A stretch of DNA of 64,000 nucleotides from NCBI GenBank assembly GCA_965219995.1, contig CBDCOX010000002.1, positions 1,696,001 through 1,760,000 on the forward strand. The letters are read 5' to 3'. Source of the stretch: Candidatus Latescibacterota bacterium. Its GTDB lineage: Bacteria > Latescibacterota > UBA2968 > GCA-2709665. The notes under the pieces were generated by a model. It was given only the letters and a program-made list of their open reading frames with translations, was not told the DNA's origin and made no database searches. Below, piece by piece: positions 12,511-17,847 of this stretch (positions are counted from its first letter, which is position 1; every line of letters begins with the position of its first letter). Made by a program: the position numbers and the translations under genes.

Positions 12511-13500
12511 TCATCGCACGGAGGCCTGCCCTCTCGCCTTGCGCAGCAGTTCGACCTGGTATTCCAGACCGAGCAACCCTTCTTCTCCTGTTACGACGGC
12601 CCGACGGCCCGTGCCGCGCACGGCGGAAACGAAGGCCTCGACCAGAATGTGGAGAAAATCGTCACACTCAAACGATTCACTCCCGTGAAGAAGCCGCGCG
12701 CGGTAGATCCCGCCCGTATCCGCATACCCTTCCCAATCCACCATAAAGCCGTTGACGCCGAACCGCCGGGCCGGAACGCCCTCGTCGATATCCCGCAATA
12801 CCAGCTCTACAGCGCAGTTGCCGCGGGCGCCGACGTAGTCGAAACTCGCCCGATTCTCACGCGCTTCGATTTCGCAGACGGCCGACGCAGCGTCCATTCT
12901 GCCGTCCGGAAGAAAGCCGATTACCAGACTCAAGGCGTGCGGGGCAACGTCGGCCCAGATTTCCTCGAAGTATTTCGGACCTTTTCGGCCCTTCACCTCC
13001 ATCTCCATCGAAATACGGGTCACGTCGTCCCACGACCCGCGGACCCGCTCGTAGAGCGCCCTGTAGTGCGGAATGCCCGCCGGATACTGTGCGGACACCC
13101 CAAGCAGACGTCCGGCGTCCCGTGCTCGCGCCACGATCGCCCGGCCGTCTTCGAGAATCTCGTCCAGCTCTTTTTCTTTGTCCCAGCAGAACGGTTTCTC
13201 ACAGAGCACGTGGGCCCCGGCCTCGAGGGCCGCGAGCGCGTGATCCCTGTGGGTCGGGTACGGGCTCGTTACCGCGACAATGTCAGGGGCTTCCGCCCGA
13301 AGCATCTCCTCCACGTCCAGGTACGCCCGGCCGCTGAATCCGAAATACGACGCCAGCCGTGCGCGGGTGCGATCGCACGACTCGCGCGACGTACCGGCAA
13401 ACGCAACCACCTCGCACCCCGAGAGATCGTACCACCGGGCGTGATGCTGGCCGATGCCGCTGGCGCCGATGACGGCGACTCTGAGAGGTCTGTTGATCAT
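12511..13500 (-). CDS. Gfo/Idh/MocA family oxidoreductase
   Basis: VAVIGASGIG, HVLCEKP, DVAPH. Confidence 0.88.
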   Translation of the reverse strand: MINRPLRVAVIGASGIGQHHARWYDLSGCEVVAFAGTSRESCDRTRARLASYFGFSGRAYLDVEEMLRAEAPDIVAVTSPYPTHRDHALAALEAGAHVLCEKPFCWDKEKELDEILEDGRAIVARARDAGRLLGVSAQYPAGIPHYRALYERVRGSWDDVTRISMEMEVKGRKGPKYFEEIWADVAPHALSLVIGFLPDGRMDAASAVCEIEARENRASFDYVGARGNCAVELVLRDIDEGVPARRFGVNGFMVDWEGYADTGGIYRARLLHGSESFECDDFLHILVEAFVSAVRGTGRRAVVTGEEGLLGLEYQVELLRKARGQASVR

Positions 13501-13893
13501 GGATTCACCCCGATAGCGAGTTCGAAGCCGGTTTCACGTAAAATAGAAATCCTCGATATCGTATCCAATTATTTTTTCCCTCGCTGTGCGCGAGTCCGTC
13601 CGCATCCGTCGCGCGGGGTGATCGGTGGCGTGAAGACCGAATTTTGACGCGGTCGTTTTTCGCGACATCCTGTCCGCAAAGGAGACCGCACTGTGAACGC
13701 GCAGGAAAGTCTTCCTGTTTTTGGCCCGTAAAGGAAACCCTTGTTTTTTTTCTGCTTTTTGATATTTTTAGACTCCCTCGTCTGTCGATTCATCGCTGAA
13801 TGGATCCGCTGAGCCATCGTGTACCAACGTCGCGCGGGCCTGGAGTATCGCGCTCATGCCTGCTATGCTCTTCCGTCCGCAAGGAGGACGTGG

Positions 13894-14403
13894 ATGATTA
13901 AAGAAAGTGTCCAGGCCGCCTTGAACGAACAATTGAACTCCGAGCTGTACGCCTCTTATTATTATCTTTCGATGTCCGCCTACTTTCATGCCACCAACCT
14001 GACGGGATTCGCATCCTGGATGCGCGCGCAGGCCCAGGAGGAATTGATGCACGCGATGAAGGTCTACGACTTTATCAACGACCGCGAGGGCGAGGTGGCA
14101 CTCACCACGGTCGCGGCGCCCAAACGGCAATGGGATGATTCCCTGGCGGCATTCGAAGATGCCTATCAGCACGAGAAGGCGGTAACCGCCCAGATATACG
14201 ACCTGGTGGACCTCAGCGTCAAGGAAAGAGACCACGCCACCAATACTTTCCTGCAGTGGTTCGTCACCGAACAGGTTGAAGAAGAGGCCACCGCAAGCGA
14301 TATCGTCAACAAGCTGAAACTGGTCGGCAACGACGGCAACGGCCTGTTCATTCTGGATCGTGATCTGGGTGCTCGAGGCCCGGATACCGAAGAAGAGGAT
14401 TGA
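13894..14403 (+). CDS. ftnA: Non-heme ferritin
   Basis: ALNEQLNSE, YLSMS, QAQEELMHA, HE, FLQWFVTEQVEEE; AAGGAGG RBS. Confidence 0.95.
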   Translation: MIKESVQAALNEQLNSELYASYYYLSMSAYFHATNLTGFASWMRAQAQEELMHAMKVYDFINDREGEVALTTVAAPKRQWDDSLAAFEDAYQHEKAVTAQIYDLVDLSVKERDHATNTFLQWFVTEQVEEEATASDIVNKLKLVGNDGNGLFILDRDLGARGPDTEEED

Positions 14404-14482
14404 ACAGCAAGGCCGTCCGGCCGGCCCGCCGGCGAGAAGCCTCATTACGAATTCTTCGCAGAAAAAAATCCTAATTCCTGTA

Positions 14483-14511
14483 TTGACAAATCGTTAATCG
14501 TATGTTATCTT
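14483..14511 (+). promoter_or_regulatory. Strong sigma70-type promoter with extended -10
   Basis: TTGACA(14483)-17 bp-TATCTT with TG at 14503-14504, AT-rich upstream. Confidence 0.75.
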
Positions 14512-14517
14512 GCTATT

Positions 14518-14810
14518 TCACAGGGCTTTCTGTACATAGAAAGTCCCTGAAGCAAGTTCGGAAGTCGGAGTCGAACGCGGTTTCACCCGCCACCCCTCGG
14601 CATTGAAACGTTGATTCCGGCGAACAACAACTCTCCGGCCGGGTACGCACCGGGGCGGAGAACCTGGAATTCCGTACCAGGAAGTCGTATCGGGAAACGT
14701 CACCCCTGAATGGTTCCCGGTTGAATCTTCAGCTTTCCCCGCGGGTTCAACGCCTCGCCCCGAGAGGGGTTGAACTTTCCGAAGTTTCCTTCTCCCTTTT
14801 TCGCTTCCTC
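14518..14810 (+). ncRNA. Candidate structured RNA (sRNA or sigma-factor leader), family unassigned
   Basis: Six consecutive hairpins directly after the promoter, ending in a long stem and pyrimidine run; no convincing ORF. Confidence 0.55.
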
Positions 14811-14989
14811 CCCTTTCCAGATTGTGCTGTTCACGTTCACGGTCGGCGCTTTCGAGCCTGTGTGTCGCGGGCAGTGTGTTTTGCCCGACCAGGATCTGTC
14901 CGCGCGCGAGTCCCGGTCGTTTCCGGATGGATCGACGTGACGCCGGGTACCGGCACGCAGCCGACCGCACCATTGTCTGGGGGAAAGAA

Positions 14990-15871
14990 ATGCCTGCAAC
15001 AGCAGCGAGCCAGCAGAATGGAATCTCGTCACGGGGAAAAAAGCGGTCAGCACTCGAGCTCTATCTCAAGGACATCGCCTATAACGACTTGCTGACGCCA
15101 CAACAGGAAGTGGCGCTGGCCAAGCGTATCCGGGCCGGAGACCGCAAGAGCCTGGAACAGATGGTCGAGTCCAACCTCCGGTTCGTCATCACCATCGCCA
15201 AGGAATATCAGGGACGCGGCTTGCCCCTTGAAGACCTGATTGCCGAGGGTAATCTGGGGCTGGTTCGCGCGGCGACGCGGTACGATGAAACAGTTGGTGT
15301 CAAGTTTACTACCTATGCTGTCTGGTGGATCCGGCAGGGCATTCTCTCATCGCTTGCGGAAAAGGCCCGTATGGTCCGCCTGCCGGTGAACAAGATCAAA
15401 CATCTGTGCCGGATGGAACGGATCGCCTCGAACCTCAAACAGAAACTTGGCAGAGAACCGAGCATCGACGAGATCGCGGTGGGGGCGGACATGCAGCCCA
15501 AACAGGCGCAGGACCTGCTGAACGCTTCGCGTTGGCACGTGTCCCTGGATATGCCGCTGGAAGAGGGCCCGGATTCGTCTCTGCTCGAAGTGCTCGAAGA
15601 CAAGGACCAGGTATCGCCAGAAAACGAAGTGATGGAACAGGCGATGGCCGAAGAAATCCGAGCCGCGCTGGATTCCCTGTCTTCCCGCGAAGCGCGTATC
15701 TTGCGGCTCTACTTCGGCATCAATGGCCAGGACACCATGACGCTGGAACAGATCGGCAATCAACTCAGCCTCACCAAGGAACGCGTCCGGCAGATTCGGG
15801 ACAAAGCCCTTGCCGCGCTTAAACATCCGTCGCGAATGCGGAAGATCCGCGCATACCTTACGGAGAACTGA
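14990..15871 (+). CDS. RpoD/SigA-family sigma-70 factor lacking region 1.1
   Basis: YLKDI, NLRFVITIAK, DLIAEGNLGL, KFTTYAVWWIRQ, SLD, TLEQIG...ERVRQI. Confidence 0.93.
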   Translation: MPATAASQQNGISSRGKKRSALELYLKDIAYNDLLTPQQEVALAKRIRAGDRKSLEQMVESNLRFVITIAKEYQGRGLPLEDLIAEGNLGLVRAATRYDETVGVKFTTYAVWWIRQGILSSLAEKARMVRLPVNKIKHLCRMERIASNLKQKLGREPSIDEIAVGADMQPKQAQDLLNASRWHVSLDMPLEEGPDSSLLEVLEDKDQVSPENEVMEQAMAEEIRAALDSLSSREARILRLYFGINGQDTMTLEQIGNQLSLTKERVRQIRDKALAALKHPSRMRKIRAYLTEN

Positions 15872-15876
15872 GCATC

Positions 15877-16311
15877 GTGGCAGACGATACGGCCAACAGT
15901 CCGGAAGCTCCTTTAAGGGGCGCCGTGTCCCCCGTTCTGGACATCGTGGGGGTGCATCACATCACCCTCGTCGTTCGTAACGTGAATCGATCCAGGTCCT
16001 TTTATGAGAAATTTCTGGGCCTGGACCCCATTCCGCGGCCCGATTACGATTTCGAAGGCGCCTGGTTTCAGTGCGGGAGTGTCGAAATACACCTCCTTGT
16101 TGCGGAAGAACACCCGGATCCGTCGAGGCGCCACATCGCGCTCGAAGTCACCGACTTTGCGCGCGTGATCAAATCTCTCGATGGCGAGTGGGTGCACGTC
16201 GTGGGCGGTCCGGGCGTCAGACCGCACGACGGAAGCCGGTTCGTGTTTCTCCAGGACCCCGATGGGAATCTGATAGAAATCACCTGCCGGAGTTTAAAAG
16301 AAAAAGATTGA
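15877..16311 (+). CDS. VOC/glyoxalase family protein
   Basis: HHITL, FYEKFLGL, EIHL, HIAL, DPDGNLIE. Confidence 0.88.
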   Translation: MADDTANSPEAPLRGAVSPVLDIVGVHHITLVVRNVNRSRSFYEKFLGLDPIPRPDYDFEGAWFQCGSVEIHLLVAEEHPDPSRRHIALEVTDFARVIKSLDGEWVHVVGGPGVRPHDGSRFVFLQDPDGNLIEITCRSLKEKD

Positions 16312-16395
16312 ACGGCCGGTGGATGCAGAATGGGCAACGGGCCGCGACAGCTGTCGCGGCCCGTTGCCTATTTGGTGCGGTCGACAGATAAGGAG

Positions 16396-17847
16396 CTACA
16401 CGCCCTTCCTCGCACGCAGCACGGGCTTTCGAGCGGCCGTTGCTTCGTCCAGCCGCCGAACGGGCGTGTGGTGCGGGGCATTGTGCAACAGTTCGGGGTT
16501 TTTCTCCGCTTCGTCCGCAATACGGATCATCGCCTCGACAAATTCGTCAATCTGCTCCAGGCTCTCTGTCTCCGTGGGTTCAATCAGCATGGCTTCCGGC
16601 GCTACCCTCGGCAGCGGAAAATAAATCGTGGGCGGATGATGGCCATAGTCGATCAGTCTCTTGGCGATATCCAGGGCGTTTACGCCACTGGCCTTCTTCT
16701 GCCGCGACGCCGAGAACACCATTTCGTGCATGGGCTGCGCCGATTTGGGACGATCGAAGGTTCCGTCCAGGCGGCTGGCGATATAATTCGCGTTCAGAAC
16801 GGCCATTTCGCTTGTACGCCGCATGCCTTCCGCGCCGAGCATTCTGGCGTAGACATAGGCGCGGATCACCATCCCGAAATTTCCGAAGAACGTACTGACC
16901 TTGCCGATCGACCGCGGGCGATCGTAATCCAGTCCGAAGAGATCGCCTTTTCTCGTGACGACGGGGACGGGCAGAAAGGGCATTAGCGCTTCCTTTACAC
17001 CGACCGGCCCGGACCCCGGCCCGCCGCCCCCATGCGGGGTGGTGAAGGTCTTGTGCAAGTTGATGTGGACGACGTCGAAACCCATATCTCCGGGCCGGCA
17101 TTGTCCCAGGAATGCGTTTAAATTTGCGCCGTCGTAATAGAGCAACCCGCCGCCGTCGTGGACGACCTGTTGGATTTCCAGGATTTCATCCTCGAACACG
17201 CCGAAAGTATTGGGATTGGTCAGCATCAGTCCCGCGACCCGATCGTTCATCTTTGCCTTCAGATCCGCGACGTCGACGGTTCCGCGGTCCGTAGACTTCA
17301 ATGTCTCCACCCGAAAGCCGCACATCGCCGCGGTCGCGGGGTTTGTTCCGTGAGCGGAATCGGGAATCAGCACGATTTGCCTGCGATCCTGCCTCTCGCG
17401 GTGGTACGCCGCGATGAGGGAGATGCCGACGAATTCACCCTGCGCTCCGGCGGCCGGCTGAAACGTAAAGCCGTCCATTCCCGTTACGGCCGCCAGTATC
17501 CCGTCCATTTCCCACAGGACGCGTAACGCCGCCTGGGAGGAAGCTGCGTCCGCGAGGGGATGCAATTCCGCGAAATCGGGCAGACGTGCGGCGCGTTCGT
17601 GTATTTTGGGATTGTACTTCATCGTGCACGAACCCAGCGGGTAGAATGCGGTATCGATGCTGAAGTTCATGGACGAGAGATTCACGTAATGCCGTACCAG
17701 TTCCAGTTCGCTGACTTCCGGCAGCGCGGGCGCTTCATTCCGATGCATTTCATCCGGTATGGGTACAATCGGATCACCCGCATCCGGGTATGTCGTACAA
17801 CGCCGCCCCGTTTCACCGCGTTCAAATATCAGCAGATCCCGATCCAT
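16396..17847 (-). CDS. gcvPB: Glycine dehydrogenase (decarboxylating) subunit 2
   Basis: PLGSCTMKYNP, SAHGTNPA, NLHKTF (PLP Lys), PHGGGGPG, EPTETES. Confidence 0.96.
   Translation of the reverse strand: MDRDLLIFERGETGRRCTTYPDAGDPIVPIPDEMHRNEAPALPEVSELELVRHYVNLSSMNFSIDTAFYPLGSCTMKYNPKIHERAARLPDFAELHPLADAASSQAALRVLWEMDGILAAVTGMDGFTFQPAAGAQGEFVGISLIAAYHRERQDRRQIVLIPDSAHGTNPATAAMCGFRVETLKSTDRGTVDVADLKAKMNDRVAGLMLTNPNTFGVFEDEILEIQQVVHDGGGLLYYDGANLNAFLGQCRPGDMGFDVVHINLHKTFTTPHGGGGPGSGPVGVKEALMPFLPVPVVTRKGDLFGLDYDRPRSIGKVSTFFGNFGMVIRAYVYARMLGAEGMRRTSEMAVLNANYIASRLDGTFDRPKSAQPMHEMVFSASRQKKASGVNALDIAKRLIDYGHHPPTIYFPLPRVAPEAMLIEPTETESLEQIDEFVEAMIRIADEAEKNPELLHNAPHHTPVRRLDEATAARKPVLRARKGV

Follow-up and report, generated by a model that had tools for sequence, protein, structure and literature searches.

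The ribosome-binding site of the rpoS mRNA is hidden by upstream pairing, and the small RNAs (sRNAs) that act on rpoS depend on Hfq. In RNA thermometers such as ROSE and fourU the site is paired with an upstream pyrimidine stretch of the same RNA, in short and local structures of tens of nucleotides (nt). The Escherichia coli rpoS leader is 567 nt long, is activated by the sRNAs RprA, DsrA and ArcZ, and is subject to Rho termination (PMC6582626). In Staphylococcus and Bacillus the UCCC-motif RNAs (RsaE, RNAIII and other Rsa RNAs) carry unpaired C-rich motifs, often in several copies and in hairpin loops, that pair with the Shine-Dalgarno (SD) sequence and block initiation independently of Hfq (PMC2790875). 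Here we describe a leader of about 470 nt in front of an RpoD-family sigma factor gene of Candidatus Latescibacterota bacterium, within a 64,000-nt stretch of contig CBDCOX010000002.1 (assembly GCA_965219995.1, positions 1,696,001 to 1,760,000, forward strand) that is referred to below as the window and numbered from its first base. The evidence supports a non-coding RNA that is conserved and structured, has its own promoter and is joined to the sigma gene, and sequence comparison also supports C-rich motifs complementary to the ribosome-binding site as its most conserved theme.

In its action the leader may most resemble that of rpoS. Both are leaders of several hundred nt ahead of the gene for an RpoD-family alternative sigma factor (putatively so here), and rpoS is controlled within its leader both at translation and by premature Rho termination. 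However, the two have no sequence or Rfam relation, the phylum is a different one, Hfq was not found in a search of this 98.6%-complete genome, and the masking candidate here is a short multi-copy C-rich motif, several copies of which are in hairpin loops. The leader shares with the UCCC-motif RNAs conserved and unpaired C-rich motifs (here CCCC, which does not vary in three of the apical loops and in one linker), but those are separate, trans-acting sRNAs of Firmicutes with their own terminators, whereas here the motifs and the complementary site are in one mRNA; the leader also does not match their Rfam models. As in an RNA thermometer the site may pair with an upstream C-rich stretch in the same RNA, although the candidates lie 170–390 nt upstream within a 470-nt multi-domain fold. 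Because there is no model match, the phylum differs, and the motifs and the site are in one molecule, the leader belongs to neither the rpoS leaders nor the UCCC-motif RNAs, and it is a new RNA family of a known kind whose function is suggested by its sequence features.

The leader and its presumed target are delimited by the following features:

14462–14468, plus strand: conserved A-run 5′ of the −35, possibly UP-element-like; the sole conserved block upstream of the promoter in the genus alignment.
14483–14511, plus strand: sigma-70-type promoter, TTGACA and TATCTT separated by 17 nt, with TG upstream of the −10; 10 of 12 consensus matches.
14515–14522, plus strand: presumed transcription start region, opening the near-invariant AUUUCACAG; placed by promoter geometry, with conservation beginning at the promoter.
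14979–14987, plus strand: ribosome-binding site GGGGGAAAG, 2 nt before the ATG at 14990; invariant in the genus.
14990–15871, plus strand: gene for a 293-amino-acid (aa) RpoD-family sigma factor, the presumed target; regions 1.2, 2, 3 and 4 (Pfam, NCBIfam).

A DNA search across 41 genomes with a 318-nt query matched in all 14 of the other genomes of the genus, at 69–92% identity, and gave no match in seven genomes from other genera of the family or in 19 of a second family, where nhmmer matched only the promoter and the SD/ATG ends. Within the genus the intergenic region is conserved unbroken from promoter to ATG, so that the original prediction, which proposed an RNA here from the letters of this stretch, is borne out by the retention of the whole stretch in 14 of 14 relatives. 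Synteny is strict: in every case a ferritin gene flanks the element on one side and the sigma gene on the other (one locus stops short of the latter), and sigma protein identity within the genus is 93–100%. The promoter, which had been described as near-consensus, is indeed the best of three sites in a scan of 13500–16500 (1.0 expected from shuffles), and all 15 aligned sequences have the same −35, while 14 of the 15 have the same −10. Promoters resembling TTGACA are also present ~390–560 nt 5′ of the ATG in many of the orthologues in other genera and in the second family.

The ~470 nt between the promoter and ATG 14990 contain no conserved open reading frame (ORF), in agreement with the earlier view that none is credible. 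Plus-strand frames are not kept among the relatives, and indels of 1, 5, 9, 10 and 12 nt are spread along the leader alignment, up to the ATG. A 151-aa antisense ORF (14518–14973) spans the leader and has no Pfam match, and an open antisense frame of at least 160 codons is present in only four of 14 genomes, the present one included. A coding reading was rejected on both strands for these reasons. Rfam covariance models gave no matches at gathering scores in the whole 64-kb window, and none on 14300–15100 even at E ≤ 10, with the models for 6S RNA and the UCCC-motif sRNAs included; ARAGORN found no tRNA or tmRNA in 14000–15400. The RNA was thus correctly regarded as unannotated, and its absence from Rfam makes it a candidate new RNA family. 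Searches on Latescibacteria sigma factors and on C-rich sigma-gene leaders, limited to one open-access library, gave no description of the element.

The leader is transcribed. Three metatranscriptome runs (X18, X19 and X20) from two studies contain contigs of a relative that is ~92% identical, and in X18 a single contig of 1365 nt begins at 14429, spans the leader and enters the coding region. We note that this contig includes ~55 nt 5′ of the promoter, and read-through from the ferritin gene or library DNA is possible. The other two runs, which bear on where the RNA might end, are considered below; contigs do not reliably give RNA ends or levels, and parts left uncovered in X18–X20 are not evidence of absence.

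The ribosome-binding site is of an unusual type for this genome. The 16S rRNA carries the canonical CCUCC at its tail. Ahead of 4003 long ORFs there are 317 occurrences of AGGAG (background 50), 314 of GGAGG (background 78) and 63 of the barely enriched GGGGG (background 34), so that the genome prefers AGGAG or GGAGG and GGGGGAAAG departs from the rule. A G-run of at least five lies just 5′ of the ATG in 32 of the 34 orthologues outside the genus, whose proteins are 65–85% identical, and the other six sigma paralogues in the genome have ordinary GGAGG-type sites, 0–3 CCCC runs upstream and no such leader. The upstream regions of the orthologues in other genera and in the second family are also long, and do not align with the genus leader. 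Of 35 such non-aligning leaders, 28 contain at least six CCCC runs per 450 nt and 26 contain just one GGGG run. The complement of GGGGAA, TTCCCC, is present in 36 of 37 leaders and totals 74 occurrences where dinucleotide shuffles give an expectation of 14.9, although the leaders are related and the excess is not to be read as a probability. The CCCC runs of the orthologous leaders fall in predicted hairpin loops in 42 of 131 instances, compared with 37 of 319 in the shuffles.

The 5′ part of the leader, which we refer to as domain I (about 14515–14800), is predicted to form a row of hairpins:

14523–14546, plus strand: P1 hairpin, 10 pairs, of which 2 are changed on both sides; 87.7% of cells paired.
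14565–14620, plus strand: P2, a long hairpin with interruptions, 95.6% paired in the outer helix and 92.2% in the inner ones.
14590–14597, plus strand: apical loop of P2, CCACCCCU, with CCCC 14593–14596 invariant.
14621–14690, plus strand: variable middle region with a conserved AGAACC, folded here into stems 14632–14661 and 14663–14681; a different fold in each clade of the genus.
14691–14719, plus strand: P5 hairpin with CCCC 14703–14706 in the apical loop, 12 pairs, 87.7% paired, 3 pairs changed on both sides.
14744–14776, plus strand: P6 hairpin with loop GCCCCGA (CCCC 14758–14761), 12 pairs, 97.2% paired, mostly invariant, 1 pair changed on both sides.

The minimum-energy fold of 14515–14800 has a free energy of −111.9 kcal/mol (z = −3.94), and none of 200 shuffles is as stable. 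All six stems of the original prediction are in this fold and P1, P2, P5 and P6 recur in the relatives; the two in the middle region (14632–14661 and 14663–14681) are clade-specific. P1 is weaker or register-shifted in eight of 15 relatives (L004–L007, L012–L015), and three relatives have lost 12 nt of the 5′ strand of P2 and keep its apical part. The three loops said to carry CCCC do so throughout. The runs at 14593–14596, 14703–14706 and 14758–14761 are invariant columns; in each of the 15 sequences P5 and P6 are predicted hairpins whose apical loop holds CCCC, and the P2 run likewise lies within or at its apical loop, part of it (one C) being predicted as paired in L012. The last stem (14743–14777) had been thought terminator-like, a suggestion that did not hold up, as a terminator scan did not list P6 and only UUU adjoins the stem, with a U5 run ~20 nt further on. 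We also note, by eye, that UCGGAG in the 5′ strand of P2 (14565–14570) is complementary both to its partner GAUUCCGG (14613–14620) and to CUUUCCGA after P6 (14776–14783), and this dual complementarity could allow alternative folds.

Structures were named on unfitted MAFFT alignments, and the pairs were then counted across the relatives and compared with the same pairs slid and with shuffles:

P1 and P2: 91.5% paired (33–53% when slid), 3 pairs changed on both sides, covariation score 0.149 against a shuffled mean of 0.130, with 18 of 500 shuffles as high.
P5 and P6: 92.5% paired (28–58% when slid), 4 pairs changed on both sides, score 0.155 against 0.099, with 0 of 500 shuffles as high.
3′ half (RNAalifold, 43 pairs): 92.3% paired (30–47% when slid), 8 pairs changed on both sides, score 0.202 against 0.152, with 0 of 500 shuffles as high.

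Covariation support is thus real though modest, as one would expect from a single genus. RNAalifold on the whole 5′ alignment recovered the structure only in part because registers shift between the clades, and an automatic search for pairs among all the columns was abandoned because G-U noise swamped it. A covariance model of P5 and P6 (R1), with which 150 of 2677 first-look candidates were scored, detects a single genomic copy (E 4e-23), and realignment with it left the register unchanged. In 34 orthologous loci outside the genus R1 gave no significant match (best E 0.24, one of three being inside a coding region), and the P5–P6 module is therefore genus-level, with only the motif theme being wider. 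Since the conservation of junction sequence fades beyond the genus, a ligand-binding riboswitch is unlikely.

The architecture also bears on 6S RNA, which had been left open as a possible identity on account of short stretches recalling it. A divergent 6S-like RNA, binding RNA polymerase holoenzyme, has some appeal: 6S RNA is a non-coding RNA functionally tied to the sigma-70 holoenzyme, the leader adjoins a sigma gene, and no 6S RNA was detected elsewhere in the genome (RF00013, no matches genome-wide at E ≤ 0.001). However, there is no Rfam 6S match on 14300–15100 even at E ≤ 10, the leader is a row of separate hairpins rather than a rod with a closing stem and central bubble, and it is continuous with an mRNA. 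The resemblance was accordingly not upheld and 6S RNA itself was rejected; a 6S-like role we consider scarcely credible.

Three further segments are candidates for, or lie around, the pairing of the ribosome-binding site:

14733–14740, plus strand: CUUUCCCC, the original anti-SD candidate, in the single-stranded stretch that links P5 to P6; an exact 8-nt complement of 14980–14987.
14777–14819, plus strand: pyrimidine-rich inter-domain linker with CCUUCUCCCUU and the block CUCCCCUUUCC (14808–14818); the block is identical in the aligned genera of the family.
14809–14984, plus strand: nested helices of domain II, closed by UCCCCU 14809–14814 with GGGGGA 14979–14984 and by 14820–14827 with 14967–14974 (RNAalifold, 3′ half).

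The complementarity claimed between CTTTCCCC (14733–14740) and GGGGAAAG (14980–14987) is exact, and the CCC core of CUUUCCCC is invariant with variable flanks. Every fold predicts the site to pair with some segment upstream, but whether this element is the partner depends on the fold consulted. In the full-length genus consensus fold the G-run pairs with ~14736–14741, which is about the element first proposed, and the GAAAG and AUG region pairs with the conserved 5′ end; in the fold of the 3′ half the partner is instead UCCCCU 14809–14814. When the second family was folded independently, its consensus (13 of 15 sequences, the two excluded having a large deletion) also paired UCCCC with the G-run, as the 3′-half fold of the genus does, and this pairing extended over the AUG and the first codons. 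Outside the genus the predicted partner is one or another CCCC motif. The models thus offer at least three candidate partners for the site (14809–14814, 14733–14740 and others). In domain II the changes on both sides are confined to the inner helices and the two closing helices never covary, and covariation cannot name the partner because both sides are invariant.

The best-supported proposal, to which we give about an even chance, is that the RNA is a cis-acting leader in which one C-rich element out of a redundant set masks the unusual ribosome-binding site, a role suggested by conservation and complementarity. On this proposal 14515–14989 would be the long structured 5′ untranslated leader of the sigma mRNA, made from the promoter at 14483–14511. 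Domain I (~14515–14800) would provide the row of hairpins, three of them with an invariant apical CCCC, plus the single-stranded CUUUCCCC, and domain II (~14809–14984) would form a nested fold whose closing helix can pair the invariant UCCCCU with GGGGGA of the ribosome-binding site. Any one of the redundant (U)UCCCC elements of the same RNA would keep the G-rich SD sequence in a duplex, and the sigma factor would be made only once the duplex is opened by some factor or condition. The pairing in the cell, the identity of the partner and the manner of relief are each putative.

Several observations weigh against this proposal. The SD sequence and all of the C-rich candidates are invariant, so the key pairing is without covariation and the data are merely compatible with it, and covariation within a single genus is in any case modest: although the covariation scores of P5–P6 and of the 3′ half are above all 500 shuffles, the numbers of pairs changed on both sides are within the shuffled range for P1–P2 (matched by 97 of 500) and for the 3′ half (125 of 500). 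The partner switches between the half-length and full-length consensus folds, and in single-sequence predictions the largest share of the pairing goes to 14809–14814 in six of 14 genomes, to 14733–14740 in two and to other segments in six. Pairing of a G5 run is predicted to be nearly automatic in a C-rich RNA, and high pairing probabilities are therefore weak evidence. The density of CCCC here is not extreme, being in about the top 1% of 320-nt windows, and is unremarkable in a G+C-rich genome. One relative (L006) has lost the main candidate, CCUCCCCUUUCC, and UCCCC from an inserted element has replaced it. Finally, simple masking would leave the many loop-held C-rich copies unexplained.

This last point suggests another role, in which the (U)UCCCC(U) repeats bind a protein or else a G-rich RNA, and the leader is regulated by, or titrates, that factor. 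There are far more C-rich copies than masking of one site needs, the motifs are displayed in loops, and the motif is kept across families where the surrounding sequence is not. No candidate partner has emerged, however; CsrA, like Hfq, was not found in a search of the 98.6%-complete genome, no RNA-binding gene was found among the conserved neighbours, and a G-rich counterpart RNA was looked for only by a density scan. We regard a binding platform of this type as rather improbable.

The junction between the two domains is the site of an insertion in some relatives. In five of the 14 relatives (L004, L005, L007, L010 and L011) a repeat of ~190 nt with terminal inverted repeats is inserted at 14799/14800, and in L006 there is a remnant of the repeat, with an associated deletion that removed the CCUCCCCUUUCC block. 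At least 40 copies of the repeat were scored in each of four related genomes and 14 in the present genome, and it looks like a miniature inverted-repeat transposable element (MITE). The locus survives the insertion, which indicates that its two domains can be separated. Further 3′ in the linker, the block CUCCCCUUUCC is identical in nine aligned sequences from five genera of the family. In other genera of the family (L029–L034) a perfect SD-like AAGGAGGTG is conserved in the leaders, far 5′ of the sigma ATG and with no convincing ORF behind it; from its sequence it could pair with the invariant CCUCC of CUCCCCUUUCC.

Contig ends from the two studies fall at ~14802–14810, the same place as the insertion of the 190-nt repeat. 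In X19 one contig covers ~14536–14810 at a depth of 29.5 and an overlapping contig from 14781 onward has a depth of 11, and in X20 a contig starts at ~14803 directly after adapter letters. These observations are a weak hint of an RNA end near 14803, and they are pertinent to a model in which domain I (~14518–14803) is released by processing or termination as an sRNA of ~285 nt, whose CCCC loops act in trans on the G-rich ribosome-binding sites of other mRNAs, in the manner of the UCCC-motif sRNAs, and maybe also in cis. The display of CCCC in three conserved apical loops would suit such an RNA, as would the separability of the domains shown by tolerance of the insertion in five of 14 relatives, and the GGGGGA site is present at dozens of possible gene starts in the genome. 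The unreliability of contigs for RNA ends and levels counts against it, however, as do the lack of a U-run after P6, which is not a called terminator, and the fact that the element is never found apart from the sigma gene (one genome copy and strict synteny). The failure to find Hfq counts little, the UCCC-motif sRNAs being Hfq-independent. Overall, a released sRNA is possible but unlikely. The original prediction allowed for a leader switch, an sRNA or both; strict synteny, conservation up to the ATG and the contig running from leader to gene favour the leader, and the possible end at ~14803 leaves room for the sRNA.

The fall in depth near 14800 in X19 could also be read as transcription attenuation, with Rho loading on untranslated, C-rich and G-poor RNA and stopping transcription before the gene unless blocked, as in the rpoS leader. 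Rho is encoded in the genome (701.8 bits), the leader is long and untranslated, and the ratio of C to G in 78-nt windows reaches 2.5–5.8 in 11 of 13 sampled orthologous leaders. But the peak ratio here is 1.8, which is below the 95th percentile (1.93) of the 64-kb window, and the C-rich motifs are short and mostly in hairpin loops between stable stems, with no open tract. The best pyrimidine tract also tolerates the 190-nt insertion. An attenuator of this kind has a slim chance of being correct.

Outside the element, its fixed left neighbour is as follows:

13894–14403, plus strand: non-heme ferritin gene (Pfam Ferritin, E 1.3e-44), upstream of the leader in 15 of 15 loci.

Downstream, a glyoxalase-family gene (15877–16311) begins 6 nt past the sigma stop codon on the same strand, and is therefore probably co-transcribed with the sigma gene. 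The neighbouring genes are metabolic. The sigma gene is one of seven RpoD-family paralogues of similar length (~265–293 aa), which are at positions 148038, 202304, 494949, 1009470, 1710990, 2402451 and 2941271 in the genome (C2). Against the RpoD model NF004208 another paralogue scores 308 bits and the leader-bearing sigma factor 275.5 bits, and for this reason the latter may not be the housekeeping sigma factor but an alternative one; the best score against RpoD models among the seven belongs to the copy at 2402451. Near-invariant TTCAC repeats on the same strand are present at the presumed start (ATTTCACAG, 14515–14523) and in domain II (GTTCACGTTCACGG, 14830–14843), and these might be protein-binding sites on DNA or RNA. 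The public runs containing the window are labelled as sponge and marine metagenomes.

To our knowledge, nothing is known of gene regulation in the Latescibacterota, an uncultured phylum, and the leader would be a first candidate there for an element that controls a sigma factor post-transcriptionally. A more ambitious proposal, and a decidedly speculative one, is that of a dual-function RNA conserved across the Latescibacterota, in which repeated UUCCCC elements gate translation of the sigma factor in cis and the 5′ domain, cleaved at ~14803, serves as a multi-seed sRNA or decoy acting on the minority of mRNAs with GGGGGA sites or on a G-rich partner. If true, it would couple sigma factor synthesis to a post-transcriptional regulon in a phylum without Hfq, CsrA or a recognisable 6S RNA. 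The signature itself is simple, with one GGGGGA site and several copies of its complement surviving across families beyond the point where the leaders can be aligned, and it offers a clean case for studying the evolution of redundant anti-SD elements.

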